Shown here in pieces: positions 1,997-58,154 of a stretch of 64,000 nucleotides of DNA; positions within the stretch are counted from its first letter, which is position 1, and every line of letters begins with the position of its first letter. The position numbers and the translations under genes were made by a program. The DNA lies in the IMG/VR virus record IMGVR_UViG_3300016471_000988, positions 32,001 through 96,000 of that record, one strand, 5' to 3'. The stretch is from a virus. Below the pieces are notes generated by a model. The model made no database searches and had not been told where the DNA came from. It saw only the letters and a program-made list of their open reading frames with translations.

Positions 1997-1998
1997 AA

Positions 1999-2466
1999 TT
2001 AATCAAAGTAGTATCCTGACTCGCTGAGTACTCCCTTGAGTCCGAATCCTTGTATATTTAGCGACGGAACATTAATGATCATGAATATATTATATTGATT
2101 ATTATCATAATCAGTTTCAACGTTTACCCTTTCCACTTGTACTCTAGGTTCAAATCGTCTTATACCCGTAAAGATTGACTCGCCTATAATCTGAGCTTGA
2201 GTTACAGATATAGGTACGAACAAGTACTGTGCCAAGTTTAACCCGTAAATCGGGTTTAAGATCTTTTGTCCAGGCATAGTCGTAAACAAATTAAACAAGC
2301 TGTTCTTTATTGCACCAACATCAAGTGATGCTTGTATATCTTTAATTTCTCTACGCTTTAAAAGCTGTGTATTTTGTGTATAATTTAGTTTTAAATCTAA
2401 AGATAAATCCTTGTATAGAGCACCAGATACTACTGATCCTATAGTACTAACGACAATGGCGGCCAT
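1999..2466 (-). CDS. gp25: baseplate wedge subunit gp25
   Basis: YKDLSLDL...AIKNSLFNLFTTMPGQKILNPIYGLNL...FEPRV gp25 signature. Confidence 0.9.
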   Translation of the reverse strand: MAAIVVSTIGSVVSGALYKDLSLDLKLNYTQNTQLLKRREIKDIQASLDVGAIKNSLFNLFTTMPGQKILNPIYGLNLAQYLFVPISVTQAQIIGESIFTGIRRFEPRVQVERVNVETDYDNNQYNIFMIINVPSLNIQGFGLKGVLSESGYYFD

Positions 2467-2471
2467 AAAAT

Positions 2472-2479
2472 TATTTATA
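2472..2479 (-). promoter_or_regulatory. T4-type late promoter TATAAATA (gp25)
   Basis: 5 nt before ATG. Confidence 0.85.
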
Positions 2480-2526
2480 ACATGGTAATTGTTCTAAAAT
2501 AAGCTTAGAAAACATAAGTATTTAAT

Positions 2527-3129
2527 ATGAACAAATTTGTCAAGTTATATGAATCCGCAATAAGCAGATTTACAAGAGGCGGGTTTTTAACTGGTGATTT
2601 AGTCAAATTTACTGATAATGCATTAAGAGATGAGTTTTTTGGTCAGCAAGCACCTAACTACCTAGCTAAAGTAAAATCCTTTATCGATAGTGGGTTAAAC
2701 ATGCGTGTTAGTGCTGTCAAACCAGTAAGACCCTCGACACAACCTGGAAACATACAGAACGAAGCTAGCGGATTTTTAATAGACATTACGTTAGAATTAG
2801 CACCAGGTCTCTATAAAGATTTTATAACATTGCCCGCACATGTCTTACAACATATTGACACTGGCACCAATCTTGCGCCTGTTCCAGATAGCTTGAAAAA
2901 AACAGACAATGTCAACATTAAACCAAAAGAAGTAGACATTAAAAGTGAAGATGAATTAATGCTATCACCACACAGACAAACAGGTACTAGCGACCAGGGA
3001 GATAAAAAAGATTCAGAAGGAGATAGAACACTTAACAATTTTAATACTGCAATACCTAGCTCACCTGCTGTTGGAGAAAAAAGCCCTGCTGTAGAGAAAG
3101 GTACTGCAAGATATCTACCTAAGCAGTAA
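2527..3129 (+). CDS. hypothetical late protein, candidate head-internal protein
   Basis: 200 aa ORF; ATAAGTA 6 nt upstream; N-terminus MNKFVKLYES. Confidence 0.8.
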   Translation: MNKFVKLYESAISRFTRGGFLTGDLVKFTDNALRDEFFGQQAPNYLAKVKSFIDSGLNMRVSAVKPVRPSTQPGNIQNEASGFLIDITLELAPGLYKDFITLPAHVLQHIDTGTNLAPVPDSLKKTDNVNIKPKEVDIKSEDELMLSPHRQTGTSDQGDKKDSEGDRTLNNFNTAIPSSPAVGEKSPAVEKGTARYLPKQ

Positions 3130-4051
3130 TCTCTGATAAAGCAATTAATAAACAATAGAAATTAATCTCTTGATCTAATGCAAAAGCTGATCGGTACATG
3201 TACTCTCCAATAGTTACTAACCATAATTTCTTTTGAGCTTCATTGAGCGAGTAATTACCGGTGTATACAGCATCAAACAATGCCTTCATTAACATACCAT
3301 AATCACCGTTAAATGTCGATTCGTTTTCAATAATGACCTTTCTTACTATCAAGACCTTTTTACTGACTACCAATTGTATAATTTTTGCAGCAAATTCATC
3401 TTTAATATTTAAATCCGGTATTTCTAGAGTTTTTGAAGTGCTGTATTTTTGAAGCTCATTAACACATTTACGGATGTCCGGAAAATATCGTCGAACTAGC
3501 CCTATAAGCTTTTTCTTAGATTCCTCTGTAACAGATACATTCTCACTCTTCAATATATTGTAACATCTCTTAACAACTTCTTGAAGCTGAGGATCCAAGT
3601 CTATAGACTGGCAACGACTTTGCAGAGGTACTATAACCCTATGCTTGTAATTACAAGTTAAGATAAACCTACAATGCCCAGCATATTCCTCCAGAACATT
3701 TCTTAATGACCGCTGAGCTTCAGTTGATGCCATGCCGTCTACCTCATCGAGCAATACAATTTTCTTTTTACCGTTGAAACTTTTAGTACGGCTAAAGCCA
3801 GTAATATCATTTCTTACAATATCTATACCAACTTCAGAACAATTTTTATATATATTTTCTGCATCCAAAGTTTGAATAAGAACTTTTGCAGTTGTTGTCT
3901 TTCCTATTCCTGCATGGCCACAAAACAGTAAATTAGGTATCTCATCATCCTTAATAAAGGATTTAAGGATTTTTCTAGTATCATCAGATAAAACAATATC
4001 ATCTAATGTATTAGGTCTATATTTTTCTGTCCAAACCTTATTTACGTCCAT
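3119..4051 (-). CDS. gp44: clamp loader AAA+ subunit gp44
   Basis: WTEKYRP, Walker A GHAGIGKT, LLDEVD, SRC motif; start moved to MDVNKVW at 4051, just after the dUTPase stop. Confidence 0.92.
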   Translation of the reverse strand: MDVNKVWTEKYRPNTLDDIVLSDDTRKILKSFIKDDEIPNLLFCGHAGIGKTTTAKVLIQTLDAENIYKNCSEVGIDIVRNDITGFSRTKSFNGKKKIVLLDEVDGMASTEAQRSLRNVLEEYAGHCRFILTCNYKHRVIVPLQSRCQSIDLDPQLQEVVKRCYNILKSENVSVTEESKKKLIGLVRRYFPDIRKCVNELQKYSTSKTLEIPDLNIKDEFAAKIIQLVVSKKVLIVRKVIIENESTFNGDYGMLMKALFDAVYTGNYSLNEAQKKLWLVTIGEYMYRSAFALDQEINFYCLLIALSEITA

Positions 4052-4052
4052 C

Positions 4053-4502
4053 TTATTTACCGCTACTGCCGAACCCTTGCGCGCCACGATCTGTCGGTTG
4101 GACTACTCCCCAACCGGTTTGCATATGAATATTATAGTAAACAACTAGCTGTGCTATCCTATCACCCTTTGCAACAGTATAATCTTCATGACCGTGGTTA
4201 TACAAAAGTACACCTAAATCGCCTCTGTAATTTTGGTCGATTACCCCTGGATGAGCTAAAATATTTTGTTTAAAACTCAACCCAGATCTAGACTCAACAC
4301 GAATCCAATAGCCAGGCTCTAGGTATGCTAATTTTAGCCCAACAGGCACCATTGCAGTGTGGAGACCTGGTATGAACTGCGATTCAACTGCAAATAAATC
4401 CCAACCAGCATCACTATCGAAGTTTTTTTTCGGTAGCTGAGCATCAGGGTGTGTCTTTTCAAACACCATTTTAGGTAGAAATGCTGGTAATGAAGGTTCC
4501 AT
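4053..4502 (-). CDS. dut: trimeric dUTPase
   Basis: DAGWDL, RSGL, GVIDQNYRGDL, GDRIAQL, RGAQGFGSSG motifs. Confidence 0.95.
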   Translation of the reverse strand: MEPSLPAFLPKMVFEKTHPDAQLPKKNFDSDAGWDLFAVESQFIPGLHTAMVPVGLKLAYLEPGYWIRVESRSGLSFKQNILAHPGVIDQNYRGDLGVLLYNHGHEDYTVAKGDRIAQLVVYYNIHMQTGWGVVQPTDRGAQGFGSSGK

Positions 4503-4508
4503 ATCATT

Positions 4509-4536
4509 AATATAACATATTGCTTAGTAATATCAA
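4509..4536 (-). promoter_or_regulatory. sigma70-like promoter (dut)
   Basis: TTGATA-N16-TATATT-N6-ATG. Confidence 0.8.
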
Positions 4537-4550
4537 TAGATAAATATATT

Positions 4551-5039
4551 GTGGAAGAAAAAGAATTTAGCGTAAACGATCTTATAAAGGAGCTTAATAT
4601 TAGCACCAAAGCCAGTAAAGATTTAGCAGAAAAGCAAGACCCAACAATAACAAGGGCTAATTTAGAGGATTTTGTACTTAATAGTACAGGAAAACTCGTA
4701 ACCCAAGGTCTTGAAATTGTTGAGGGCGTCAAGGATTATGTAATGAATAATCCAGAGAGTAGAGAAGTTGAAGCGCTTTCCGAGGCGCTTAAAGCGGTGG
4801 CAAGCGCCCTGTCCGTAATTAAAGATATTCATGTTACCCAAGTAAAAATGGAAGGTACAAAAGAACTTAAAATTATGGATATACAGTCCCGAAAAGCTCT
4901 GAAAGAAGTAGACCGTCAAGAAAAAATTTTAATGAGTCGCGATGAAATTTTTAAGAAAATCTTAGAAGAAGCTAATGTAATCGAAGCAGAAGCTACAAAA
5001 GCTATTAATATTACGCTCCCAGCACTTTCCGCGAAGTAA
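4551..5039 (+). CDS. probable terminase small subunit (gp16-like)
   Basis: GTG start 4 nt after ATAAATA; helical pattern LVTQGLEIVEGV...NPESREVEALSEALKAVA resembles the core of T4-family small terminases. Confidence 0.55.
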   Translation: MEEKEFSVNDLIKELNISTKASKDLAEKQDPTITRANLEDFVLNSTGKLVTQGLEIVEGVKDYVMNNPESREVEALSEALKAVASALSVIKDIHVTQVKMEGTKELKIMDIQSRKALKEVDRQEKILMSRDEIFKKILEEANVIEAEATKAINITLPALSAK

Positions 5040-5853
5040 GCTTGCTCTGTGTATCTTGAAGTTGGTTTGCAAGTAAATCCTGGTTAACAGGATTACCTTC
5101 AATACTCATTGTAATGTTATAATTGGGCACATACTGTAAGTTTTGCGGGGCACTTTTAGGGTTATAATTACAATAAAGATCAATAACTTTGTATAGTTGC
5201 TTATATTCGCCTTGAATTTTCTGTGTAATAGTTGGCATGATGCCTTTCATACGCGTAAAATGCTCAGTATCTGGTACTAGGTTATCGCCATGCGCTTTTT
5301 TGCTAGTTGAAACACTGGACTGAATACTCTGAAGATTTTTTCTAAAAACTAGATTAGTTTTTTTACTTACTTCTCCTAAAAGCAGCAATGTTGCAGGGTG
5401 TATTTTGTTAGATAACGAGCTGCCATATCGTAATGGCGCCATCATGTTTTGACTATTAACATCGCTAACCAGCTGCGTGCTATCGTCAAAATAATTTTCC
5501 ATCCTTGCAAGGCCACCTATACTATCACTGAACTGCCTATAAAAAGTACCATCGCCTATTTGCATACGAACTTCTTTTCGAACTGCATTTAAACTATTAT
5601 TGAACTGATTAATCCAATGTGCAGCAAACTGTGGTTCCATAGATCCCATTTTTTTATCCATTTTAACAAAAAAATCTTTTTGTGCTGTTATCGGATCATT
5701 TTTAACCTTGCTTAAATTATACTCAATAGCAGTTTCTATTTCAGGTGTATAGTTTTGCATTGTGCTCAAAAAATTCGACGCTTTCTCGTAAAATTCTTTT
5801 TTGTAGAAAAGATTTATGCTTGTTAATTGTGGATCTGTAGTAATTTTATTCAT
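5011..5853 (-). CDS. hypothetical protein in the baseplate operon
   Basis: 280 aa ORF coupled by an ATGA overlap to the upstream hub-like gene. Confidence 0.75.
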   Translation of the reverse strand: MNKITTDPQLTSINLFYKKEFYEKASNFLSTMQNYTPEIETAIEYNLSKVKNDPITAQKDFFVKMDKKMGSMEPQFAAHWINQFNNSLNAVRKEVRMQIGDGTFYRQFSDSIGGLARMENYFDDSTQLVSDVNSQNMMAPLRYGSSLSNKIHPATLLLLGEVSKKTNLVFRKNLQSIQSSVSTSKKAHGDNLVPDTEHFTRMKGIMPTITQKIQGEYKQLYKVIDLYCNYNPKSAPQNLQYVPNYNITMSIEGNPVNQDLLANQLQDTQSKLTSRKVLGA

Positions 5854-7439
5854 ACAACTGTTGAGGATTGCTTAGTCGATTCTGCAACATAAGGCTTTGT
5901 ACATACAAGATAATTATAATATTGATCGTTTTTAAACACGTGATCGACACGAACAACTAAGTAACTTCCCATAATTTTGTTATCGAAAGCAGATTCGTTT
6001 TGAGAATTATTTCTTTTTATTGTTATAAATTTACCGGCTTCACGGGCTGTTGATCCTCTAGCTCTAAAGGCAATAGTATTGTTATTAAAAATGCTATTTA
6101 AAATAATTTTGTTGCTACCGGAATTTAATCGTGAATTTGGATCAGTGTTAGGGTTAAAAGAATGCACAACATTTTGATTTTGTGTTCTAGTTTGATTTAA
6201 AACTATATTTGTACTAGGTGACTTACCTGCAAGCCCTTTTTGTGTCTGTACTATGTTTTTATTAAACTTTTTCATGCTTTCTTGTATGTTATTTTCTTTT
6301 GCGTCTATTGAAAATGTCTTTGTCGCTGGATCGTAGTTATGAACTATATGTGAAACGACACCAAAAGTACTTGCGTCTGCGGTCATCCCTGCATTTTCGA
6401 AGTTTTCTGCATAAGAATAATCAGGTAAATTATTAGCAAAAATTGATACTTGTGGATTGCGCTGTGGGCTAGTAGTTCCGCCAGAACCACTATTAGGACG
6501 AGCAATAATAAAATTCTCACTCATTCCAGGTCCACCTAAGTCTCCAAAACCTGCATTTCCCTTATAATATGCTCCCTGAAATAGGTCTGTTATTGGAATA
6601 AGACTCCATGCACCGTTTCTATTTTTTCTAAGTAACGCTGGTGGGCAAGAAGGATCTGATTCGCTTACATGATAATCTAGCAAATAGTATAAATCGTCTA
6701 TAGCTTTGTTGTTTGCAGGGCTACTATAAAAAAGCTTAGTTTTGCCAGTATCCCATTTACTTGAAAATTTCGGTGGCGTTAGATCATTAGATAGAGTATT
6801 GGTTAATAGCTCCTTTATTGCTGAGCCTGTATCAATACTACGTTCAGTATTTCCGATTAAACGCTTTGAAGAGCTTGAAGCTTGATTTTTTTGCTGAGAT
6901 TTCATCGTACTAAAATAAGCATTACGTTCATTTAATGTTTGAAAAGATTGCTCGTGAAACATTAGCTTTTTCAACTTTACATTTTTATCTTTATCTGACA
7001 CTATATCCTGAGTCTCATAAATCGAAAATATGTAATTTAATTCGAACTGTGTTCCGACAGAATTACTTCTCGATGTGTTAAATCCTTGATCGTCATTTAC
7101 GCCCATTGCGGGTTTAATATTTACTAATAATAAGTCACGGCCGTCACCTCTAAATCGAAATGGTGTAAAGGCTTGCTCAGGCATGCCCCTAACATCAGTA
7201 GATATACTTTGAGAGCTTTCTAGTGCATCTAAATTATTCTGAAACGTCAAGTATCCAGTCGCAAAAAATGAAGCTAATTCGTCTGTAATAGCAAAATCTA
7301 CTACACTGGCAAATTTAATTCCAGCGCTATCGCCATCGCTGTTAAGAAGTTGAACGTTAAATTCGTAGTGTGTATCTCCTATAGAAACGGAATCGCTCTT
7401 ACCGCTAAACGATAGATTTTTTAAAACCGGATTTTCCAT
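5850..7439 (-). CDS. baseplate hub protein (gp27-like)
   Basis: 529 aa; follows gp53; beta-rich C-terminus (GKFITI...GSYLVVRVDHVF) typical of gp27/late-control-D hubs. Confidence 0.55.
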   Translation of the reverse strand: MENPVLKNLSFSGKSDSVSIGDTHYEFNVQLLNSDGDSAGIKFASVVDFAITDELASFFATGYLTFQNNLDALESSQSISTDVRGMPEQAFTPFRFRGDGRDLLLVNIKPAMGVNDDQGFNTSRSNSVGTQFELNYIFSIYETQDIVSDKDKNVKLKKLMFHEQSFQTLNERNAYFSTMKSQQKNQASSSSKRLIGNTERSIDTGSAIKELLTNTLSNDLTPPKFSSKWDTGKTKLFYSSPANNKAIDDLYYLLDYHVSESDPSCPPALLRKNRNGAWSLIPITDLFQGAYYKGNAGFGDLGGPGMSENFIIARPNSGSGGTTSPQRNPQVSIFANNLPDYSYAENFENAGMTADASTFGVVSHIVHNYDPATKTFSIDAKENNIQESMKKFNKNIVQTQKGLAGKSPSTNIVLNQTRTQNQNVVHSFNPNTDPNSRLNSGSNKIILNSIFNNNTIAFRARGSTAREAGKFITIKRNNSQNESAFDNKIMGSYLVVRVDHVFKNDQYYNYLVCTKPYVAESTKQSSTVV

Positions 7440-31753: not shown

Positions 31754-32497
31754 TTAGGTATTATAAGTGTCGTATTCAATTAATCTACAATTATACTTTT
31801 TCCAAATATTACTCAAATCCTGTTTGTAAGGTAGAGGGTCTATATAACCTGCTTTAGCAAACCCTTTGATTCGTAGCGCGCTGCTTGGAGAGTTAGCATC
31901 ACTTTTATTATTGCCTGAGTAGCACGTATAGGTTTTACTAAATTTTACCTTGAGTCTTATGCCTTCCTTGACAATATCAGCCTTATCTAAATCAATTAAA
32001 GGTGCCTCGATAGTAATTCTAGTTTCCCGATTAAGGGCTAAAATACTATTTATAGTAGGTAAAAATTCTGGGCTTGCATCCCAATAACCAGCTAAACTAT
32101 CAACTTTTGTAGCACCGTGATAAACAATTTTTGCACCTACAGCTTCTGCATACGAAGCTGCAATACTAAGAAAAATCATATTACGATTTGGTACATATGA
32201 CTTAGGTTGTGCCTCGCCTGCTATCTGCCTTATATCTGGTGTTTCTATATTGTTGTTTGTGAGGCTACTTGTGGGCGCTAGCGTCTTGATAAAAGATGTA
32301 TCAATAGTTTGCCACTCTTTTATCTTGAGCTTCTTAACATGGTGTTCTGCTAAATTTAATTCTCTTTTGTGGCGTTGACCATAATCATATGATAGACCAT
32401 AAACATTCTCTGGTCCGAATGTTTCGACTGCCTTGTAAAGTATAACGGTACTATCCATACCGCCTGAAATTGGAACAACTACTTTAGCTTTTTTCAC
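31754..32497 (-). CDS. queC: 7-cyano-7-deazaguanine synthase QueC
   Basis: SGGMDS PP-loop, YGQRH, YVPNRNMIFLS, D.SPEF, TYTCY. Confidence 0.93.
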   Translation of the reverse strand: MKKAKVVVPISGGMDSTVILYKAVETFGPENVYGLSYDYGQRHKRELNLAEHHVKKLKIKEWQTIDTSFIKTLAPTSSLTNNNIETPDIRQIAGEAQPKSYVPNRNMIFLSIAASYAEAVGAKIVYHGATKVDSLAGYWDASPEFLPTINSILALNRETRITIEAPLIDLDKADIVKEGIRLKVKFSKTYTCYSGNNKSDANSPSSALRIKGFAKAGYIDPLPYKQDLSNIWKKYNCRLIEYDTYNT

Positions 32498-43356: not shown

Positions 43357-43569
43357 ATGAAGTCGTTCAAACAATACGTTATAGAAATGAATGTCGCGGG
43401 CGCAGGCGGTGTATTTGGCAGCGGAGCAAGCATGGGTCATGGTGGGTCATTCAATAATGCTGATTTTTATGCGCCTGGGGATACAAGAGTGCCTGTAGCT
43501 TTAGGAGCTAGGAAAGTCGGCAAAAAAAAGAAACCAGTTGTACAGAGAAGACCTTTAGTAAGTAATTGA
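43357..43569 (+). CDS. small Gly-rich late protein with capsid-targeting-like N-terminus
   Basis: MKSFKQYVIEMNVAGAGG...; ORF-track start 43174 is antisense to uvsY and is rejected. Confidence 0.7.
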   Translation: MKSFKQYVIEMNVAGAGGVFGSGASMGHGGSFNNADFYAPGDTRVPVALGARKVGKKKKPVVQRRPLVSN

Positions 43570-43985
43570 TGGAATTAGGTCACTGGCGGCTATCACCCGG
43601 TGTAGTTATAACAGAAAATACGTTTGGGTTTATCTACGAAATCTGCAATACTGTTACAGGAAGAAAATACATAGGTAAAAAACAATGTCTTACTAAATTA
43701 AAGCGCAAGCCACTAAAAGGTAAAAAGAATAGACGTATAGAAATAATTGAAACGGATTGGCAAACATACACCGGGTCGTCAAAAGAGCTTAACGAGGATA
43801 TAGTAAAATACGGTAAACAGGCCTTTAGTTTTACAATACTAAAAGCTTGTGGATCAAAATGGGAGCTAGGTTACAGAGAAATAAAGGAACAAATAGAGCG
43901 AGATGTTATTCTTAGGGAAGACTACTATAACGGTATTTTAAATGTAAGAATAGGCACCCCGCCTAAGGATTTTAAGCTTGATTAA
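43569..43985 (+). CDS. GIY-YIG family nuclease
   Basis: GFIY...KYIG, later E and YYN motifs. Confidence 0.85.
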   Translation: MELGHWRLSPGVVITENTFGFIYEICNTVTGRKYIGKKQCLTKLKRKPLKGKKNRRIEIIETDWQTYTGSSKELNEDIVKYGKQAFSFTILKACGSKWELGYREIKEQIERDVILREDYYNGILNVRIGTPPKDFKLD

Positions 43986-44011: not shown

Positions 44012-44545
44012 GTGAGGTATAGTAAAAAAGTCGACGAGGCAAATATTAGAATAATTGATCTTAAGCTTGCTGTGCTTGATGAAATCGAGCCGCTAGTCGA
44101 CGAGGACCGTTATAAATTTAACCTTGCACAAAATTCTAGACTTTTAAAAAATTTTATCTTCTATAGACTTAGCGATTTTGTTTTAAAAACCATGGAAAAT
44201 TCAGTTGGTACTAAAGTTGTATTTTACATTACGCCGGACTTCAATCTAACCGTTTTACAGGAATATAGTAACTATACTAGAGCGGCGTTTGTGCAGATTG
44301 CTAGCGTATTAGCGCTAAATGTAATGATAGGTAAGACACATACATCACAGTTTCTTGCTACTTTAATCTCTCAGTCAGGTGAAGGCAAAGAGGCAAGAAA
44401 TAGACTACATTTTACCTTGAATAGGACTAAAAATCCTCCTAATTTACCACGCTTTAACAAACTCTTGCGTAAATACAATATACATAAGCTTGAAGGGGAT
44501 ATAAATAATAATTATAAAGTAAAATTAGGTTTATTTGTAGCATAA
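44012..44545 (+). CDS. hypothetical early protein
   Basis: GTG 6 nt after TTGATT-N16-TATAAA. Confidence 0.75.
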   Translation: MRYSKKVDEANIRIIDLKLAVLDEIEPLVDEDRYKFNLAQNSRLLKNFIFYRLSDFVLKTMENSVGTKVVFYITPDFNLTVLQEYSNYTRAAFVQIASVLALNVMIGKTHTSQFLATLISQSGEGKEARNRLHFTLNRTKNPPNLPRFNKLLRKYNIHKLEGDINNNYKVKLGLFVA

Positions 44546-44554
44546 ATATTGTAT

Positions 44555-44980
44555 ATGAAGTTCTTAGAAAAGCTTAAAGAACATTACCAGACATTGGGGG
44601 TAGAAGTTCCTGATTGGCTTAATGAAGCTGAAGTGACGGGATCACCAATCGGCGGTGCTACACCTGGCAGTACACCTCAAGCGGGTCAGCAGCCTTCCGT
44701 TGTTGGTCAATTCATGAAAGCTGTTGAAGTTATGGGTGATGATCCTGATGTTCAAAAACTAAAAGCTACAGTAACACAAAAAGTAACGGACGCAAAAAAA
44801 GTATTTACAGATACCGGTACAAAGGTCGTTGACACTATTGACAAGGCTATGCAAGGATTGAATAATATAGCTGGTTCTGCTGGTGCAGCTACAGCAACAA
44901 CAGCGAGTAATATTGCTGCAAATGCAGCTGCAGGAGCCGCAAATGCGGGTACAGCAGTAGGTCAAGTAGGCGTAAAATGA
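44555..44980 (+). CDS. Ala/Gly-rich late protein, candidate head-internal protein
   Basis: ATG 6 nt after ATAAATA; MKFLEKLKE...LNEAE. Confidence 0.8.
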   Translation: MKFLEKLKEHYQTLGVEVPDWLNEAEVTGSPIGGATPGSTPQAGQQPSVVGQFMKAVEVMGDDPDVQKLKATVTQKVTDAKKVFTDTGTKVVDTIDKAMQGLNNIAGSAGAATATTASNIAANAAAGAANAGTAVGQVGVK

Positions 44981-45333
44981 AATTTTTAAACCTTATTAAT
45001 AACAAGTTCAAGGAATTGAATGAACAAGTACCAGGAGAAGTGCCTGGGCTAGGGCCAACAGATCCTATGGCTCCTGCTCCAGCACCGGTGCCGCCTCCCG
45101 CTGCAGGCCCGGCTCCTGAGGCAGGTCCAAAGCCTCTCTCACCTGAAGGTGAAGTATTTTTAGTAAGATTATTAAAAAAGGCTTTGTTTTTAAACCCTGG
45201 CGATATTGATGAAAAAATGTTGAAAGATTTGCCTGAAATTAATGAAACCAATGCATCTGAAGTACTTAATTCAATTGTTGAGATAATGAAGAAGTACTCT
45301 AATAGTATTGATGTAGATACTGAAAATAAATAA
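44977..45333 (+). CDS. Pro-rich late protein, candidate head-internal protein
   Basis: MKFLNLINNKFKELNEQ; coupled by an ATGA overlap. Confidence 0.8.
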   Translation: MKFLNLINNKFKELNEQVPGEVPGLGPTDPMAPAPAPVPPPAAGPAPEAGPKPLSPEGEVFLVRLLKKALFLNPGDIDEKMLKDLPEINETNASEVLNSIVEIMKKYSNSIDVDTENK

Positions 45334-45340
45334 ATAACTT

Positions 45341-46567
45341 GTGGATTACAAGAGTTTAAAGGACATTTACACTGAAGCTGTAAATGGTAAGATGGTCCCT
45401 CCGCTACCGAGACAAGCTGTCCGCCTGCTTATTAAAGAGGAAGACGACTCTGTTAAGGTATATAAGCAAGAGCAAGATGACCCTGCAACGCTCGAAGGTG
45501 AAGTCGATAAAGAGTATTATAATGATGTAATATCGCCTGCAATAAACCGTGGCGGCGATTACAAACTATCAAAAATAGTTAAAGAGCGTCTCGTTGACGC
45601 ACATTGTTATACAGATAAAAATTACAACATGTTAGTAGATTTTTTTCAGGCGCAAAACATAACAATAACTGAAGGATTATTTACAGATTGTCAGCGAATT
45701 TTTCTTAGTAAAATAAATGCAAATGAAAATAGCTTTCAATTTATGGATGTGTTGGCTGAAGCATTAAACGCAAACGGCCAAAGTATAGATGGGAGGACGC
45801 TAGCGGGATATGATAAGGTTACTGAATTGTATGATATGCTTGCTACAGACAAGCCAGCAAGCGCTGATAGAAGTCAGAATGCAGGGCCAGGTGAAGTGTT
45901 TATTGCATTCTTTACGAAGGGCAAAAAACTATCATTTAAAGGTTCGGAAAAAACAGAAGAAGAAGCGAAGGGCGATATTGAGGTTGGAGGATTAAGAATG
46001 GAGTTAAAAGGTGTGGATGGTAGATTAAAGGTTCCTAATTTATCCTACGATCTATCACCAGAAAAGGGCTTCAAAGACTTAATAAAAAAAGGACCTCTAG
46101 AACAAATAAGATACATAGCCCTCGGTAGTCACAGTAGCGCAGCACAAATTTTTAAACCTTTTGAAAAGGAGGTTATTAGCTTGGTCTCGGATAGACCAAC
46201 ACTCGAAACGCGGCAAGACTGGACACTAGCGCGTGATATTGGTGGTTACATTACGTTTAAAATCTATGCAGAACAAAACCGATTAAACGCGTTTTTGATT
46301 GTTGATAAATACTCTGGCGGTGGGTTGGTATGTATACCGGTTAAATATAACCCAGGTAATACACTTACAGATATTAAAAACAATATAAAAGGAAGATTCT
46401 ACCTACAACTTGACAGAAAAGGAGCTAAAGTTAAGATTGGAAAGAGACCTGAAACACCGTCACAGTCTACACCAGCTGTTGAGCCTGTGCCGCAGTCAGC
46501 GGTCATGTCGCCTCCGTTAGCTCCGACTACACAAGAGCAACCGGAGATAGACAATGCTAACCTATAA
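45341..46567 (+). CDS. PD-(D/E)xK nuclease-like late protein
   Basis: GPGE...GDIEV...MELKG; GTG 4 nt after ATAAATA. Confidence 0.65.
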   Translation: MDYKSLKDIYTEAVNGKMVPPLPRQAVRLLIKEEDDSVKVYKQEQDDPATLEGEVDKEYYNDVISPAINRGGDYKLSKIVKERLVDAHCYTDKNYNMLVDFFQAQNITITEGLFTDCQRIFLSKINANENSFQFMDVLAEALNANGQSIDGRTLAGYDKVTELYDMLATDKPASADRSQNAGPGEVFIAFFTKGKKLSFKGSEKTEEEAKGDIEVGGLRMELKGVDGRLKVPNLSYDLSPEKGFKDLIKKGPLEQIRYIALGSHSSAAQIFKPFEKEVISLVSDRPTLETRQDWTLARDIGGYITFKIYAEQNRLNAFLIVDKYSGGGLVCIPVKYNPGNTLTDIKNNIKGRFYLQLDRKGAKVKIGKRPETPSQSTPAVEPVPQSAVMSPPLAPTTQEQPEIDNANL

Positions 46568-47177
46568 ACTTTTTCTTGAGCAAAGCTCCACTAGAATAAT
46601 CGGTCTTTTTCCCGGTGCATTTAAGCCGCCGCATAAAGGACATTTTGCAACTGCGCTAAACGCGGCTAAAAATAATAATGATGTTTTTATCCTAGTATCT
46701 TCAACAGACCGTGATGGCATCTCTTCAACTGATTCCCTGACAATTTGGAATATTTATAAAAAATATTTACCAAAAAATATTCGAATATACTTAATACCAG
46801 GTTCACCAGTATTAGCTATCTATCAAACTGTAGATATATTGAACAATGGTAAATTTAGCGCTACACAAAAAGTGCCGCTACCTATGCCTGTAGCTGCGGA
46901 ACTGGCAGAGGAAATCAAGCAAACTGGAAATAAGTTTAAAATTAATCTTTACACAGGCGGGGAGGATGCCGCCCGGTTTGATGCGTTTCAAAAAAACACA
47001 CCAATTTATGCTGGAAAAGATGTTATTGAGATAAAGCAGCAAAACGTATCGCGCATAGCATCAGCAACGGACGCGCGTGCAGCTTTGAAAGAGAAGAATT
47101 ATGATAAATTTAGACAAGTAATGCCAGATATAACTAAGGAAAATAAAATTGCTATATACAAAATGCTAGTAAAATGA
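46554..47177 (+). CDS. HxGH (cytidylyltransferase-like) nucleotidyltransferase
   Basis: LFPGAFKPPHKGH and C-terminal SATDAR motif. Confidence 0.88.
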   Translation: MLTYKLFLEQSSTRIIGLFPGAFKPPHKGHFATALNAAKNNNDVFILVSSTDRDGISSTDSLTIWNIYKKYLPKNIRIYLIPGSPVLAIYQTVDILNNGKFSATQKVPLPMPVAAELAEEIKQTGNKFKINLYTGGEDAARFDAFQKNTPIYAGKDVIEIKQQNVSRIASATDARAALKEKNYDKFRQVMPDITKENKIAIYKMLVK

Positions 47178-48505
47178 ACACCTATAAGAATTTTTTAGTC
47201 GTCGAAGCAGCTGCTCCTGCTGTAGATACTCATATCAAAACGCATTTGTCACATCTAGAAGACTTAGCTATAGAGCGTGGGCTAGATGGTTTTAATAATT
47301 TCTTAGAGCATATAAATGAAATGATTGAAAAGATTAGAGGGTTTGAGACTAATCAAGAAATAAATGCAAAGATTGATGGTAGTCCTATGATTCTTTTTGG
47401 CTTAGATCCGAGAAAAGAATTTAAAAATAAATTTTTTCTTTCCCTAAAGGGCGGGCTAAGTAAAGCCAATCCTAAGATATTGCATACGGAAGCTGATATT
47501 GAAGCACTATATGGCACACATCCTATAAAATCTAAGCTTAAAAACATGTTAAAATTTCTACCCTCGGCATATGATAACTCTGGAAAAATATACCAAGCGG
47601 ACACATTATTTGCAGAGCCAACAGACAAGAAAAAAATTAAAATTGGAGAGGAAGAATTCATAGCATTTAAGCCAAATGTTATTGTTTACGCTGTGCCTGT
47701 TGATCCGACAAGCGAGATAAGTAAGCGAATAAGTGCCGCAGTAGTTGGTATAATTGTTCATGAATCATTTAAGGGTGTACAAGAGGGTGAAGGCATCAAT
47801 TTGATATCGGCAGGTAGAAATGTAGCATCGCTTGTACAGAAAAGCAAGAGAACAAATGTGTTTATAGAAAGTAGCAATTACGGTCAAGTTGCGGTTAATA
47901 TTCCTGATGGAGAGGTAAGAAAATTACAATCAGAAGTTGCAAAAGCTAAGATTGCTATCGGACGAGTAACCCCTGAGTTTAATAAAGAATATATCAGTAG
48001 TCCTGTTTTAGCTTTATTAAAAATATTTTTAAATAAACAGGTTGATTTAGGTGAAAAAGGTTTTTTTGGAATAGCTAAGCAAAATATAGAAGCCGGTGAG
48101 CAAGAGCTAGTTGTTAATTCGTTTATTGATAATTTTCGAAGATTTATTTCGGAGCGCTACGGAAAAGAAGGAGAGCTTAAAAAAACTCCTCAAGGTAAAG
48201 CAAACGTAGAGACAAGATTAAATCAAATACTGTCATTTTTAGAGCTAAGTAAAAAAAGCATAGCCGGTCTGATCGCAGCAACATTTCATATGACGGCGTC
48301 AAAATACTATCTTTGGAATATTTTATCTAAATTTGAATCTAAACTTGGTAGGCAATTTTATCAAAATAAGGACGGGTCTTTTACCCCTGCAAGAGATGAA
48401 GGCTATGTTTTATTTGTCGGTACAAATCATGTAAAGATTGTAGATAGATTAGACTTTACAAAAATAAATAGGGCGGAGGGCGGAAGGCAGCGTACAACAA
48501 TTTAA
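47174..48505 (+). CDS. RNA-ligase-like covalent nucleotidyltransferase (resembles the family often labelled DUF6267)
   Basis: HLEDL, KIDGSP, YQAD, EGYV, VKIVDR motifs. Confidence 0.7.
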   Translation: MNTYKNFLVVEAAAPAVDTHIKTHLSHLEDLAIERGLDGFNNFLEHINEMIEKIRGFETNQEINAKIDGSPMILFGLDPRKEFKNKFFLSLKGGLSKANPKILHTEADIEALYGTHPIKSKLKNMLKFLPSAYDNSGKIYQADTLFAEPTDKKKIKIGEEEFIAFKPNVIVYAVPVDPTSEISKRISAAVVGIIVHESFKGVQEGEGINLISAGRNVASLVQKSKRTNVFIESSNYGQVAVNIPDGEVRKLQSEVAKAKIAIGRVTPEFNKEYISSPVLALLKIFLNKQVDLGEKGFFGIAKQNIEAGEQELVVNSFIDNFRRFISERYGKEGELKKTPQGKANVETRLNQILSFLELSKKSIAGLIAATFHMTASKYYLWNILSKFESKLGRQFYQNKDGSFTPARDEGYVLFVGTNHVKIVDRLDFTKINRAEGGRQRTTI

Positions 48506-49039
48506 TTACTTGCTGTCTTCTTGAATAGTTTTAAGAGCCTCTAAATTAAAAATTACCTGACGAATAACCTGCTCGAGAACTTCTTTCTTTTCGCCATGTA
48601 GCATTTCTTTTACTCTCGAAACAATATTGTCTTGGTGTGCTCCTTCTAAGTCAGTTCCAAACTCACCTTCTTTCTTAAACTTGTCATATTCTAGATAATT
48701 TTTTACTCCTTCAAGATAGCTAGCCGCAACAGTAATTTTACTGAACACCCACGGCTCTAAATCTGAACAATCTTTAATAATATTGTAAAGCTCTTTTGAT
48801 GCTTTATGAATCTTGTAGAGCTCACTCTTAGCCATAGAAGCTTCTGTTTCTGAATCCTCTGTATTAATGGGAGGTAAATGATCCTCCTGTTCTTCCTCTT
48901 TTTTTATAACTACCGCGGTAGGTGTACTTGGTGAAGGGGAAGCAGATCGACCAGCGCCAGGTCCAAAAGCAAGCATTTCGTTAACAATACTTTCGCCGTA
49001 TACTTCACCTAAATTTGCCAAGTCGCGTTTTCTATTCAT
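48506..49039 (-). CDS. hypothetical late protein, candidate head-internal protein
   Basis: ATG 49039 lies 6 nt after ATAAATA; ...ESIVNEM. Confidence 0.8.
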   Translation of the reverse strand: MNRKRDLANLGEVYGESIVNEMLAFGPGAGRSASPSPSTPTAVVIKKEEEQEDHLPPINTEDSETEASMAKSELYKIHKASKELYNIIKDCSDLEPWVFSKITVAASYLEGVKNYLEYDKFKKEGEFGTDLEGAHQDNIVSRVKEMLHGEKKEVLEQVIRQVIFNLEALKTIQEDSK

Positions 49040-49045
49040 TTTCAT

Positions 49046-49064
49046 TATTTATTCGTTATAAATA
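49046..49064. promoter_or_regulatory. back-to-back late promoters
   Basis: tatttat at 49046-49052 (6 nt to ATG 49039) and TATAAATA at 49057-49064 (4 nt to ATG 49069). Confidence 0.85.
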
Positions 49065-49068
49065 TGTA

Positions 49069-49482
49069 ATGCGTAGATTTGGTAAGCTTTTTATTGAACA
49101 AATACTTGGATTGTTTGAAGGTATTACTATACAACATGTTGGAACTGTTAAGGCTAAAGTAGATACAGGTAATAGTGCACACAATGTTCTCCATGCAACA
49201 AATATTAAAACTAATAAAAAAGAAGTCGAATTTGATACAGTAAACAACAAACACCTAAAATTACCTGTATCTGAGATGATCTTAATACATATTGGTAGTG
49301 GCAATAAAGAAGAAAGACCTGTAGTAAAGCTCGATTGCAGTATAGGTACAGAGCAATTTAACGGTGTACCGTTTAGTCTGGGCGATAGAACGGAAAATGA
49401 TACCCCTGTATTATTAGGGGAAGAATTTATTCGAAAAAATGGTGGTGTTGTTAATTTGAATATAAACCGGCAAACCCAATAG
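49069..49482 (+). CDS. retropepsin-like aspartic peptidase (RimK-associated 'ATP-dependent zinc protease' family)
   Basis: AKVDTGN, ERPVV, FSLGDR, VLLG; ATG 4 nt after TATAAATA. Confidence 0.82.
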   Translation: MRRFGKLFIEQILGLFEGITIQHVGTVKAKVDTGNSAHNVLHATNIKTNKKEVEFDTVNNKHLKLPVSEMILIHIGSGNKEERPVVKLDCSIGTEQFNGVPFSLGDRTENDTPVLLGEEFIRKNGGVVNLNINRQTQ

Positions 49483-49787: not shown

Positions 49788-50441
49788 CTAGATTAATTTG
49801 CGATTTTGTGCAAATTCTATGAACTTATAAAACTCATTGCGAGAATTATCTTTATCATCGAGAAATGCACCGGACATTCTAGCTGTTCTCATTGTAGAAT
49901 CATGACGTATGCCGCGGTTCGAGCAGCAAGTATGGGCTGCTTCAATCATCACAGCTACGCCCTTGTTCTTTTCGCAAACTTCATCGATGTATTTGTGTAT
50001 TTGCATAGTTAGATTTTCTTGAACCTGTGGGCGACGAGAAAACCAATCCACAATTCGGTTGAGCTTACTAAGTCCAATTACTTTTCCATCCTTAGCAGGA
50101 ATATATGCTACATGTGCAAATCCCATAAAAGGTGCGTGATGGTGCGAACAAAGCGACGTTACTTTGATATTAGTTTGCGCAACAATACCATCGTACTTAT
50201 CAACATTATCAAAAGCTGTTACCTTAGGAGGCTCGCTATAACACCCCCAAGCAAAATCTTCAACAAATGCTTTTGCTACTCTGTGCGGTGTATTAGCGCT
50301 ATTTGGATCGTTCCTCCAGTCATATCCTAATGCATCCATATACTGCTCGTATGCTTTTGCAGCTTTTTCAATAATTTGCGCTCTTTCTTCTTGAGTATGG
50401 GGATGATTATGGTTGGCGAATTGAAGCTTCCTTTTAAACAT
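49788..50441 (-). CDS. folE: GTP cyclohydrolase I
   Basis: TPHRVAK, SLCSHH.APF, GLSKLNR, RRPQVQE, H.C...RG. Confidence 0.96.
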   Translation of the reverse strand: MFKRKLQFANHNHPHTQEERAQIIEKAAKAYEQYMDALGYDWRNDPNSANTPHRVAKAFVEDFAWGCYSEPPKVTAFDNVDKYDGIVAQTNIKVTSLCSHHHAPFMGFAHVAYIPAKDGKVIGLSKLNRIVDWFSRRPQVQENLTMQIHKYIDEVCEKNKGVAVMIEAAHTCCSNRGIRHDSTMRTARMSGAFLDDKDNSRNEFYKFIEFAQNRKLI

Positions 50442-52112: not shown

Positions 52113-52132
52113 ATACGTGTAAATACACGTAT
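52113..52132 (+). repeat. 8-bp inverted repeat overlapping the queD start codon
   Basis: ATACGTGT-AAAT-ACACGTAT. Confidence 0.7.
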
Positions 52133-52808
52133 GAATTATCAAAGTACAAAGACAATTGATTTAGGCAGCTGCGCATTCAGACAGTGGAGGGCTGATAGCC
52201 ATTGCAAATTTATCCACGGCTATAGACTTCAAGCTAAATTTTGGTTCAATTGTTCAACATTAGACGACAAGAATTGGGTTGTAGATTTCGGTGGGTTAAA
52301 AGAGTTAAAGAGTGTCTTAGAAAAACAATTTGACCATACTCTGTGTATTGCAGCTGATGATCCTCATCTTTCGCATTTTCAACAACTTCATGAATTAGGC
52401 GTAGCAGACTTGCGTGTTATGGAAGGTGGTGTTGGTATAGAGAGAACCGCTGAGTGGTGTTTTGAGACGGCAAACTCTCTAATAAGAAAGTTAACCAAGG
52501 ATAGATGCTGGGTAGAAAAAGTTGAGGTCTGGGAGCATGACAAAAACTCCGCTATTGCTACACACGGCTATAGAACAGTACCGCAGGTCAATCCTTATGT
52601 AAAGCATGTAGCGGAGCAGTATGAATTAAATTTTAGCAAACCAGAACCGGTAGCAACAGCTGTTGCAGCACCGGCAGAAGAGATACAAGCTGCTATACAA
52701 GAAAAAATTCAAACTGCAGAACAGAAAAACCCTATTGCTGCGCCTGTAGGCAATCAAGTCACTACGGGCTGGTCGAATCCCTTTGGTGGGACGTCTTGGG
52801 GTCGCTAA
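52131..52808 (+). CDS. queD: 6-carboxy-5,6,7,8-tetrahydropterin synthase QueD with C-terminal extension
   Basis: C..IHGY, VVDFG.LK, FDH, E..A, VWE. Confidence 0.9.
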   Translation: MNYQSTKTIDLGSCAFRQWRADSHCKFIHGYRLQAKFWFNCSTLDDKNWVVDFGGLKELKSVLEKQFDHTLCIAADDPHLSHFQQLHELGVADLRVMEGGVGIERTAEWCFETANSLIRKLTKDRCWVEKVEVWEHDKNSAIATHGYRTVPQVNPYVKHVAEQYELNFSKPEPVATAVAAPAEEIQAAIQEKIQTAEQKNPIAAPVGNQVTTGWSNPFGGTSWGR

Positions 52809-53793: not shown

Positions 53794-54534
53794 ATGGAAA
53801 CTACTATCTTTCTCAGCGACGATAAAATCTTTTATACTATTGAAGGTGAAGGTGAGTATGTAGGTCAGCCTTCAGTCTTCATGAGACTGTCTATGTGTAA
53901 CTTAACATGTAAGGGGTTTGCCTCGGCGGATTCACCTCATGGTTGTGATAGTTTTATTAGCTGGTCTGTTAAGAATAAATTTACTATTCTGGAGATTTTA
54001 GATCTTTTAGACAAAGAAAATTATACCAAGCACTTGAGGGAAGGTGCCATATGGAAAATTACTGGTGGTGAGCCGTTAATACAGCAAAAGGCCCTTCTTG
54101 AATTGGTTAGGGAATTTGCTAAGCGTAATGGATTTGTTCCTAAGATCGACTTTGAAACAAACGCAACAATTCAGCCTCTTGAAGAGTGGTCAGTATATCA
54201 AGTTACATATACAACATCACCGAAGATGTCAAACAATGGAGACCCGGAAGAGCGGCGATATAAGCCCGCTGTACTTAGATGGCACGTTAGTGCCGGTTCC
54301 GGTTTTAAATTTGTAATTAATAGTGAGAAAGACCTAGACGAAGTATATGAAAAGTATATAAACCATCCTGACGTATTAGTACCAAAGCATAGAGTCTGGT
54401 TGATGCCGTGTTGCGGTAGCCGTAATGAGCATACAGATAAAGCTGCATTAGTTGCAGAGCTATGTAAGAAGCATGACTTTAAATTTAGCCCTCGGCTGCA
54501 ACTAGTAATATGGGATAAAGCGTTAAAAGTATAG
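53794..54534 (+). CDS. queE: 7-carboxy-7-deazaguanine synthase QueE (radical SAM)
   Basis: TIEGEG..VG.PSVFMRL..CN..C, ITGGEP, ETN, SPK, KFV, LMP, RLQ..IW. Confidence 0.93.
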   Translation: METTIFLSDDKIFYTIEGEGEYVGQPSVFMRLSMCNLTCKGFASADSPHGCDSFISWSVKNKFTILEILDLLDKENYTKHLREGAIWKITGGEPLIQQKALLELVREFAKRNGFVPKIDFETNATIQPLEEWSVYQVTYTTSPKMSNNGDPEERRYKPAVLRWHVSAGSGFKFVINSEKDLDEVYEKYINHPDVLVPKHRVWLMPCCGSRNEHTDKAALVAELCKKHDFKFSPRLQLVIWDKALKV

Positions 54535-57458: not shown

Positions 57459-58154
57459 ATGCGAATCGCTTTTAGCGGTGCTGCCTCTACAGGCAAGACA
57501 ACAACTCTTAGGGCTTTTCTAGAGAGATGGCCACAATACAAGCAGCCAGAGCTTTCATATAGAAGTTTGATAAAGAATAATAAGCATAGCAAACAAACTG
57601 ATAAAAAAATACAAAGAGAAATACTCGATTTCATGGTAACTCAACAGCAAGAATTTACACAGCACGATAAAATAGTATTTGATAGGTGTCCTTTAGATAA
57701 TATTGTATATTCATTATGGGCCTTCGACAAAAATAAGAAAGGATTTACTGACAAATATATTGATGAATCTATAGCCTCGGTAAGAAAAGGAATGAGATCT
57801 TTGGACATTATATTCTTAGTGACACGTGACGGTATGGGACCTATAGAGCAGGATGATCATCGAGAGGTTGATGAAACATATGTAACAGAGACAGATAATC
57901 TTTTTAGAGCTTTGACTAAACAATATTCAACTACTGGGGTATCACCTTTCTTCCCGCCTAACGATAGCCCTGCATTAATCGAAATAAGCGGTACTACTCA
58001 AGAGCGTATTGAGCAAATATCAATGTATGTAACTGAAGACGGAAACATGTACGGTGAAGAGCAGAGTCTGGTTAATATGGATGAGATTGCTAAGATGGAA
58101 AGACTGCTAACGCATCAAAAAGAAATGCTAAAGAAAGAAAAGGGCATTCTATAA
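57459..58154 (+). CDS. P-loop nucleotide kinase-like NTPase (NadR/AAA_28-like)
   Basis: IAFSGAASTGKTT, FDRCPLD, R..RE. Confidence 0.85.
   Translation: MRIAFSGAASTGKTTTLRAFLERWPQYKQPELSYRSLIKNNKHSKQTDKKIQREILDFMVTQQQEFTQHDKIVFDRCPLDNIVYSLWAFDKNKKGFTDKYIDESIASVRKGMRSLDIIFLVTRDGMGPIEQDDHREVDETYVTETDNLFRALTKQYSTTGVSPFFPPNDSPALIEISGTTQERIEQISMYVTEDGNMYGEEQSLVNMDEIAKMERLLTHQKEMLKKEKGIL

Follow-up and report, generated by a model that had tools for sequence, protein, structure and literature searches.

Known ligases, capsid-targeted proteins and the DUF6267 gene

Among the ligases of the covalent nucleotidyltransferase superfamily, those of most interest here are NgrRnl of Naegleria gruberi, a nick-sealing RNA ligase of the Rnl5 type, T4 Rnl2 (RnlB) and Trypanosoma REL1, which both belong to the Rnl2 family (PF09414), T4 Rnl1, which takes part with Pnkp in tRNA repair, and T4 gp30 and other ATP-dependent DNA ligases (PF01068). 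The internal proteins of phage T4 form another group of described proteins, which share a leader of the MKTYQEFIAEA type that serves as capsid-targeting sequence (PMC3012670). The gene described here has likenesses to both groups. It lies in a stretch of DNA of 64,000 nucleotides from an aquatic phage of the T4-like group, hereafter called the window (positions 32,001 to 96,000 of IMG/VR record IMGVR_UViG_3300016471_000988), and its 443-aa product belongs to the family DUF6267. On balance, we consider that this protein is probably a ligase-type lysine nucleotidyltransferase with a capsid tag, which would seal strands and be injected with the DNA.

The open reading frame (ORF; 47174-48505, + strand) is uninterrupted, and the opposite strand is full of stops. 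The parent record of the window has 126.8 kb and was judged 59% complete. A sequence-only reading of the window had reported a 443-aa ORF with five ordered motifs, in a family usually left as a domain of unknown function; all five strings were found at their places and in that order, and the only Pfam match of the protein at E<=10 (hmmscan) is DUF6267, with an E-value of 7e-54 over residues 23-432. The matches in PHROGs are limited to families of unknown function, including phrog_455, whose profile also includes a cytidylyltransferase part. Searches of NCBIfam and PADLOC with the protein were empty, the ESM Atlas named no family besides DUF6267, and nearly all of the 157 relatives obtained by database search are unnamed. 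The family corresponds to T4-GC71, as defined by Sullivan et al. (2010), and a search of the literature found no paper in which DUF6267 is named or called a ligase.

Conserved motifs and the putative active site

Conservation was assessed in an alignment of 30 database homologues and 80 IMG/VR loci, comprising 107 distinct sequences at approximately 27-100% identity. More than 578 IMG/VR loci matched the search patterns, and all counts of related loci given below cover the 80. Absolutely invariant in the 107 sequences are K66, D68, G69, G76, P79, K92, D143, P167, Y172, G192, H196, K377, E409, G410, V412, K421, R425, and F428. Motifs I, III, IIIa, IV, and V follow each other in order along the protein, with their acidic residue, aromatic residue, Glu-Gly pair, and lysine invariant or nearly so.

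Motif I, NAKIDGS (aa 64-70; 47363-47383, + strand, as for all features of this gene), harbors K66, the predicted nucleotidyl-accepting lysine, together with D68 and G69. In a model made with AlphaFold 2 (AF2), K66 is found at the end of strand 61-65, ahead of a hairpin. A motif III-like sequence, YQADTLF (aa 140-146; 47591-47611), carries D143 and is located on strand 138-146 of the model. It is followed by the motif IIIa-like AFKPNVIVYA (47663-47692; AFKPN at aa 164-168), in which F165, P167, and Y172 are invariant or nearly so. Motif IV, EGYVL (aa 409-413), and motif V, VKIVDR (aa 420-425), form a predicted β hairpin (48398-48448; strands 411-415 and 418-422) that contains the invariant E409, G410, K421, and R425. 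A further motif, HLSHLED (aa 24-30; 47243-47263), is specific to the family and leads into the N-terminal helix 28-54, its residues H24, H27, E29, and D30 being conserved in at least 103 of the 107 sequences. T4 Rnl2 has SLEN in the equivalent place before its first helix, which is a resemblance only.

The predicted catalytic lysine, acid, and second lysine are therefore conserved throughout the family, in support of the sequence-only reading. Such strict constraint on the residues of motifs I, III, IV, and V excludes a chance set of motifs, and the invariance of the putative catalytic residues argues for a working active site.

Predicted fold

The AF2 model, built from a 30-sequence alignment, has a mean predicted local distance difference test score (pLDDT) of 88.3 and a predicted template modelling score (pTM) of 0.85. 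In it, five long helices (245-384) interrupt a β-rich domain (aa ~60-240 and ~390-436), and helix 28-54 packs with these helices; residues 4-18, whose pLDDT is below 50, are predicted to be disordered. The helical insert (aa ~245-384, ~140 aa; 47906-48325) is situated between motifs IIIa and IV, contains the invariant K377, varies in length in the family, and is not seen in any of the matched structures. The chain ends 18 residues past motif V, with only helix 425-436 predicted after that motif. Consequently, the model has neither the C-terminal helical domain of Rnl2 nor, beyond the adenylation domain, an oligonucleotide/oligosaccharide-binding (OB) fold domain with motif VI, for which no sequence is left.

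In an exhaustive VIA-align comparison with 48,161 PDB representatives, the first 21 rows were ligases only, the best match being NgrRnl (5cot; Z 8.9, 191 residues aligned). REL1 (Z 7.9), T4 Rnl2 (7.9 and 7.8), archaeal Rnl3 (7.3), Trl1 (7.1), and T4 Rnl1 (6.8) were also matched, as were DNA ligases at 6.0-6.7 and capping enzymes at 5.0-5.6. A second look was limited to Foldseek's best 1000 chains, with 50 rows listed, and all 50 were ligases. Twelve of these rows were NgrRnl entries (Z 8.9-9.4), in which 186-197 residues were aligned; the aligned part of the chain, 125-339, covers practically all of the nucleotidyltransferase domain of NgrRnl. In this comparison T4 Rnl2 reached a Z of 8.0, REL1 7.9, Rnl1 7.6, and the DNA ligases 6-6.8; RNA ligases made up rows 1-28, above the DNA ligases, one of the 28 being deposited as a putative DNA ligase. 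Matches in BFVD outside the family were mostly proteins named RNA ligase, and the predicted secondary-structure setting of the motifs agrees with that of T4 Rnl2, whose sequence was taken from the T4 record.

The predicted structure supports the proposal that DUF6267 has a covalent nucleotidyltransferase (ligase) fold, the model matching ligases only and RNA ligases most closely. Taken alone, a Z of 9 is modest; what makes this assignment convincing is that the list of matches is uniform.

Relationship with characterized ligases

The more specific proposal that the protein is of the Rnl2 type did not hold. No match to PF09414 or PF18043 was found in the protein (hmmscan, E<=10), hhalign comparisons with Rnl2 were not significant, the C-terminal domain is absent, and the helical insert splits the nucleotidyltransferase domain. 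In the hhalign comparisons, only motif IV and motifs III/IIIa were aligned; the best stretch, itself not significant, pairs YQADTLF with motif III of Rnl2 (YQVFGEF), and AFKPNVIVYA was aligned with the FYVFD stretch in the same comparison. Given the lack of a match to the Rnl2 profiles, the lack of a C-terminal or OB domain, and the helical insert, we place DUF6267 in the ligase superfamily as a variant with a new architecture, its predicted shape being nearest to those of OB-less nick-sealing RNA ligases.

NgrRnl, the best structural match, has the K-x-D-G form of motif I in common with DUF6267, and neither protein has a C-terminal OB domain. The titles of NgrRnl mutant structures, K170A and D172A, reveal the same K-x-D arrangement as K66-x-D68. 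On the other hand, an N-terminal domain is present in NgrRnl, and instead of it a helical bundle between motifs IIIa and IV is found in DUF6267; the two proteins are only 7-9% identical, with no detectable sequence homology. Unlike DUF6267, NgrRnl has no capsid leader and no partner of the HxGH type (see below). T4 Rnl2 and REL1 match the fold with Z-scores of 7.8-8.0 and have the same order of motifs. The phage-encoded T4 Rnl2 reads AEGYVLKP ... AIKCKN, so that its EGYVL is identical to that of DUF6267, which is phage-encoded as well. In contrast, motif I is KIDG in DUF6267 and KIHG in Rnl2, motif V is K-x-x-x-R and K-x-K, respectively, the C-terminal domain is found in Rnl2 only, and the helical insert is peculiar to DUF6267.

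T4 gp30 and the ATP-dependent DNA ligases match in the fold of the adenylation domain (Z 6-6.8) and also have a KxDG motif I, but DUF6267 lacks their OB domain with motif VI and their DNA-binding domain. No match to PF01068 was found in the protein or anywhere in the 126.8-kb record. With T4 Rnl1 (Z 7.6 in the second look) the protein has in common the fold of a phage RNA ligase; Rnl1 and Pnkp are nevertheless early cytoplasmic enzymes and not cargo, and in contrast with T4 tRNA repair, neither a phosphatase nor a 2H end-healing enzyme was detected in the DUF6267 module. A P-loop kinase (PF13671/Zeta) is encoded beside DUF6267 in some relatives, including Pelagibacter phage HTVC008M, but it is not conserved. 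The HTVC008M protein, gp129 (L004:5712-6374), is of the Zeta-toxin/AAA_33 type, and its gene is found between those for DUF6267 and the HxGH nucleotidyltransferase; it might be an end-healing or a small-molecule kinase.

Putative capsid-targeting leader and predicted late expression

The N-terminus of the protein resembles the capsid-targeting sequences of T4. T4 ipII and ipIII (NC_000866) begin with MKTYQEFIAEA, and the DUF6267 protein with MNTYKNFLVVEAAAP; its leader would comprise MNTYKNFLVVE (aa 1-11; 47174-47206), with a predicted head-protease cut after E11. Similarly, T4 IPI-III and Alt have a leader of ~10 residues like MKTYQEFIAE, followed by a hydrophobic-x-Glu site. Most members of the family begin with M-x-x-F-K-x-[FY]-[IL]-x-E, with HLxHxED a few residues further on, and MKKFSTYLAEAKNT and MQSFREYLAEA are examples of such leaders. 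When a strict leader pattern was applied to the related loci, it was found in 40 of the 80 DUF6267 ORFs and in 20 of the 51 ORFs of the HxGH partner. Among the other ORFs of the same strand it was present in 46 of 783, mostly less than 2 kb from the DUF6267 gene, and on the opposite strand in 1 of 408. The DUF6267 proteins of S-PM2, P-HM2, S-CRM01, and S-RIM2 have no leader and start approximately at the predicted cut position.

The same genome encodes a prohead protease of the gp21 type (PF03420, E 1e-35; G000:C1:10827-11273). The DUF6267 gene is the last of a tightly packed operon (44555-48505, + strand), whose genes abut or overlap and which is followed by a convergent gene (48506-49045). 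The sequence TATAAATA, a box of the T4 late-promoter type (44500-44507, + strand), precedes the operon, whose first ATG (44555) follows at a distance of 48 nt. In the window as a whole, the box is not enriched, with 18 occurrences for 12.4 expected, and its weight comes solely from its position just upstream of gene starts.

A late operon, a cluster of similarly tagged genes, and the presence of a gp21 homologue are all features that DUF6267 has in common with the T4 internal proteins. The latter are small basic proteins or an ADP-ribosyltransferase, whereas DUF6267, known here from sequence alone, has a predicted ligase fold. We know of no capsid cargo with such a fold.

Published virion proteomes fit the rule that the leader marks packaged proteins. 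The product of T4-GC190, the partner of T4-GC71, was detected in virions of S-SM1 (PMC3037559) and S-CREM2 (PMC10665884), and it bears a leader in S-RIM2. The kinase-like protein gp130 of S-CRM01, whose N-terminus is MISFDQFLSE, was detected in the published virion proteome of that phage. In contrast, T4-GC71, whose product is leaderless in S-PM2, P-HM2, and S-RIM2, has no proteomic flag in S-SM1, S-PM2, or Syn9 (PMC3037559 supplement). Packaging of the DUF6267 protein is a well-grounded prediction from these comparisons, and it is reasonably probable that in this lineage the protein is both loaded into the capsid and ejected from it.

Two ORFs of the window outside the operon have N-termini of a similar kind. 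The first encodes a 70-aa protein (43357-43569, + strand; MKSFKQYVIE/MNVAGAGG...), with a leader resembling a capsid-targeting sequence, a Gly-rich middle, and a basic tail, KKKKPVVQRRP, which could be a cargo of the internal-peptide kind. The second encodes a RimB-like 'Zn_protease' (49069-49482, + strand; PF05618, E 5e-8) that starts with MRRFGKLFIEQ and has a TATAAATA box at 49057.

The HxGH nucleotidyltransferase partner and its operon

The gene upstream of DUF6267 (46554-47177, + strand) encodes a 207-aa protein that starts with MLTYKLFLE/Q and contains GAFKPPHKGH. It appears to be an HxGH nucleotidyltransferase of the cytidylyltransferase-like, NMNAT-like kind, as suggested by weak matches to PF01467, NMNAT, and NadD models. 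The weak matches are mostly to NMNAT, NadD, and NadR, and all of them are far below the family cut-offs and cover mainly the HxGH segment. The homologous protein of S-CREM2 has been called an NMNAT homologue (PMC10665884). In the window, the stop codon of the partner overlaps the start codon of DUF6267 (ATGA).

A homologue of the partner is found on the same strand within 3 kb, or fused to DUF6267, in 51 of the 80 related loci, and further downstream in three more. In 47 loci it is downstream within 3 kb on the same strand (directly adjacent in six), in three it is part of the same ORF, and in one, L012, the nearest relative, it is adjacent on the upstream side. None was found in 26 loci, several of them at contig ends, and in P-SSM2 the DUF6267 gene is ~100 kb from that of the T4-GC190 partner. 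Fusions of DUF6267 with a cytidylyltransferase (CTase), of 591-731 aa, are also found, for instance in the resequenced S-PM2. The opposite order is exemplified by L039 (CTase-?-DUF6267; 4066-7197, 1043 aa) and L061 (CTase-SET-DUF6267; 1325-4138, 937 aa).

Often, the partner is a long protein resembling a polyprotein, in which RimK and RimB-like protease, SET, Pol-beta, or DUF5824 modules are present. Thus, L030:2838-5429 is a fusion of a Pol-beta nucleotidyltransferase with an HxGH nucleotidyltransferase, and L021:5537-8674 (~1000 aa) one of an HxGH nucleotidyltransferase with RimK and a RimB-like protease. Fusion with the HxGH enzyme had been taken as proof of a shared pathway, but it was given less weight after these polyproteins were found, since they imply that the linkage may reflect a common destination rather than one pathway. 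Neither the leader nor the late promoter nor the HxGH partner, coupled or fused, figured in the sequence-only reading.

The operon also encodes a 408-aa protein (45341-46567, + strand) with a leader-like N-terminus, MDYKSLKDIYTE/A. It contains G-x-G-E ... K-G-D-x8-E-x-K, which is invariant in its 13-member family and resembles the motif of PD-(D/E)xK nucleases. For its AF2 model (pLDDT 78), even the closest structures, HhaI (Z 4.2), MspI, NhoI, and PvuII, are weak matches. It was considered as a member of a conserved module and rejected, a homologue being found only in L012, in the same gene order; BLAST revealed no link with the upstream genes of cultured phages. Elsewhere in the window, a P-loop kinase of the AAA_28 family (57459-58154, + strand; E 5e-14) is encoded. 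AAA_28 includes the ribosylnicotinamide kinase domain of NadR, and this gene and the NMNAT-like gene hint at NAD salvage.

Among the T4-like genes of the window are those for a gp46-like protein, an uvsW-like helicase, SegE, PhoH, FolE, QueD, and a QueE-like protein. The SegE-type GIY-YIG homing endonuclease (43566-43985, + strand; PF19835, E 5e-29) is encoded between the uvsW-like helicase and the operon. FolE (GTP cyclohydrolase I; 49788-50441, - strand), QueD/PTPS (52131-52808, + strand), and the radical-SAM QueE-like protein (53794-54534, + strand) form a 7-deazaguanine precursor pathway near the operon.

Distribution and cyanophage forms

In GenBank, DUF6267 is carried by Synechococcus and Prochlorococcus myoviruses, Pelagibacter phage HTVC008M, Methylophilales phage Melnitz, Stenotrophomonas phage DLP6, and a few others, and it was not found in the enteric T4-like phages. 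T4-GC71 is present in 16 of 16 cyanophages of the T4-like group and in none of 10 non-cyano T4-likes (PMC3037559 supplement). Some cyanophage forms, such as those of S-RIM2 (298 aa; L092:3495-4391) and P-SSM2 (270 aa; L093:2576-3388), have a much shorter insert and no leader, and they retain HLEHLED, K-x-DG, EG[YF]V, and YKLVDR. The complete genomes of S-PM2, P-HM2, HTVC008M, and Melnitz, which all encode DUF6267, contain no match to PF01068, PF01653, or PF09414, whereas DLP6 encodes a gp30-type ligase (PF01068, E 2.5e-15) as well as DUF6267.

Alternative explanations

The distribution of the family raises the question of whether DUF6267 might be the missing DNA ligase of marine T4-like phages, a divergent, OB-less, ATP-dependent enzyme that would seal Okazaki fragments and nicks in place of gp30. 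The lack of recognizable ligases in the four genomes cited above and the restriction of T4-GC71 to the cyanophages among the T4-likes compared would fit this idea. In addition, gp30 is listed with the quasi-core genes, a group of which marine cyanophages lack many, and is noted as missing from at least one of these phages (PMC2993671); the four complete genomes directly confirm that it is missing. Moreover, the gene is found just downstream of uvsX, gp41, and mazG in cyanophages and pelagiphages, its product is leaderless in cyanophages, and DNA ligases are among the structural matches. However, the anticorrelation with gp30 stems in essence from a single phage clade, and a late promoter and a capsid leader, as found in the window, would be odd for a replication enzyme. 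The co-occurrence of both proteins in DLP6, the missing OB domain with motif VI, and the consistent ranking of RNA ligases above DNA ligases argue against a simple replacement of gp30, which we regard as unlikely.

Tight and ancient linkage with the HxGH partner, as indicated by the ATGA overlap, the presence of a same-strand neighbor in most of the 80 loci, and fusions in both orders, has suggested another possibility, namely that DUF6267 transfers a nucleotide to a target other than a nick, in one pathway with the NMNAT-like protein. It might be an NAD+-using ligase with recycling of NMN, an enzyme of 5'-capping or adenylylation, or part of an NAD-related counter-defense. The nature of the weak partner matches, the NMNAT homologue reported for S-CREM2, the AAA_28 protein of the NadR-kinase type, and the P-loop kinase between the two genes in HTVC008M agree with such a role, and capping enzymes have the same fold (Z 5-5.6). 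Nevertheless, no NAD-dependent ligase is among the 50 best structures in either VIA-align list, an absence that concerns ranked lists only, the partner matches are far below cut-offs and confined mainly to the HxGH segment, and fusions with the unrelated RimK, SET, and Pol-beta modules may mean only co-packaging. In S-RIM2, in addition, the partner has a leader and the ligase-like protein does not. We find this explanation improbable, even more so than the replacement of gp30. Finally, a catalytically dead relic of the ligase fold, with no role but that of capsid cargo or of a protein that binds nucleic acids, would account for the fact that no activity has been shown to date, for the lack of sequence similarity to active ligases, and for the departure of motif V from the Rnl2 pattern. 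Yet K66, D68, G69, D143, E409, G410, K421, and R425 are invariant in the 107 sequences, down to 27% identity, and a relic would not be expected to show such a conserved active-site signature. A relic is thus very improbable.

Several observations also weigh against the preferred interpretation, that of a packaged and probably strand-sealing nucleotidyltransferase. No sequence-level link to any characterized ligase family was detected with Pfam, PDB, or hhalign: neither the protein nor the family profile retrieved a ligase from the PDB, and hhalign comparisons of the family alignment with T4 Rnl2 and with a 17-sequence Rnl2 profile gave probabilities below 1%. Foldseek matches to the PDB were weak, with a best E-value of 0.03 and RNA ligases scattered among the top rows, and Z-scores of ~9 are only modestly above the background quoted for VIA-align. 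The register of the motifs relative to solved ligases was deduced rather than obtained by superposition, and motif V has one lysine (K421) and R425 in place of the two lysines of Rnl2. With respect to packaging, the predicted cut site is V-V-E and not the classical L/I-x-E, and the DUF6267 protein has been detected in no virion proteome so far. The fusions with the partner may mark shared cargo status rather than a shared pathway.

Proposed mechanism

Our observations concern the ORF, its motifs with their invariant residues, the predicted fold, the similarity of the leader, the gene linkage, and the protease gene; from them we infer how catalysis, the nucleotide used, the substrate, and packaging might be envisioned. 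The core of the protein would be a lysine-nucleotidyltransferase domain of the ATP-dependent polynucleotide-ligase type (aa ~60-240 and ~390-436). As in the superfamily, K66 would attack the α-phosphate of ATP, or NAD+, to form an enzyme-Lys-AMP intermediate; the AMP would then be handed to a 5'-phosphate end, and attack by the adjacent 3'-OH would seal the strand. D143 of motif III, E409 of motif IV, and K421 and R425 of motif V would contribute to nucleotide and metal binding. Covalent nucleotidyltransferase activity is very likely on these grounds, and polynucleotide ligation is likely, if less so. As to the substrate, RNA or a nick that contains RNA is slightly favored, on account of the lack of an OB domain and of the fact that the nearest structures are those of nick-sealing RNA ligases (NgrRnl, Rnl2, and REL1). 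This preference is a tentative one, and DNA as the substrate is a less likely option.

For its delivery, the protein would be produced from the late operon and loaded into the prohead by means of its 11-residue leader, the protease of the gp21 type would trim the leader after E11, and the protein would be ejected into the host with the DNA. The NMNAT-like partner, which bears the same kind of leader, would travel along.

Implications for marine T4-like phages

In the T4-like myoviruses of Prochlorococcus and Synechococcus, T4-GC71/DUF6267 belongs to the core genes, with relatives in phages that infect SAR11 and OM43 (Methylophilales), and its function has been blank since 2005-2010. Assignment to the ligase superfamily would make it the only recognizable strand-joining enzyme of marine T4-like phages. 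Its layout would be a new one for a ligase, of use to enzymologists and possibly to biotechnology. In its most inclusive form, the proposal would be that of a new family of OB-less ligases split by helices, which would represent the missing strand-joiner of marine T4-like cyanophages and pelagiphages, the first injected ligase, which in many lineages would be delivered in the capsid, and an enzyme that may use NAD+ regenerated by its partner; it is doubtful that all of these parts hold together. If the protein is indeed delivered with the capsid, it could serve at the very start of infection to close breaks in phage DNA or to mend RNA that host defenses have cut. The leader itself suggests that aquatic T4-like phages inject a larger set of enzymes, which would be comparable to the anti-defense internal proteins of T4.

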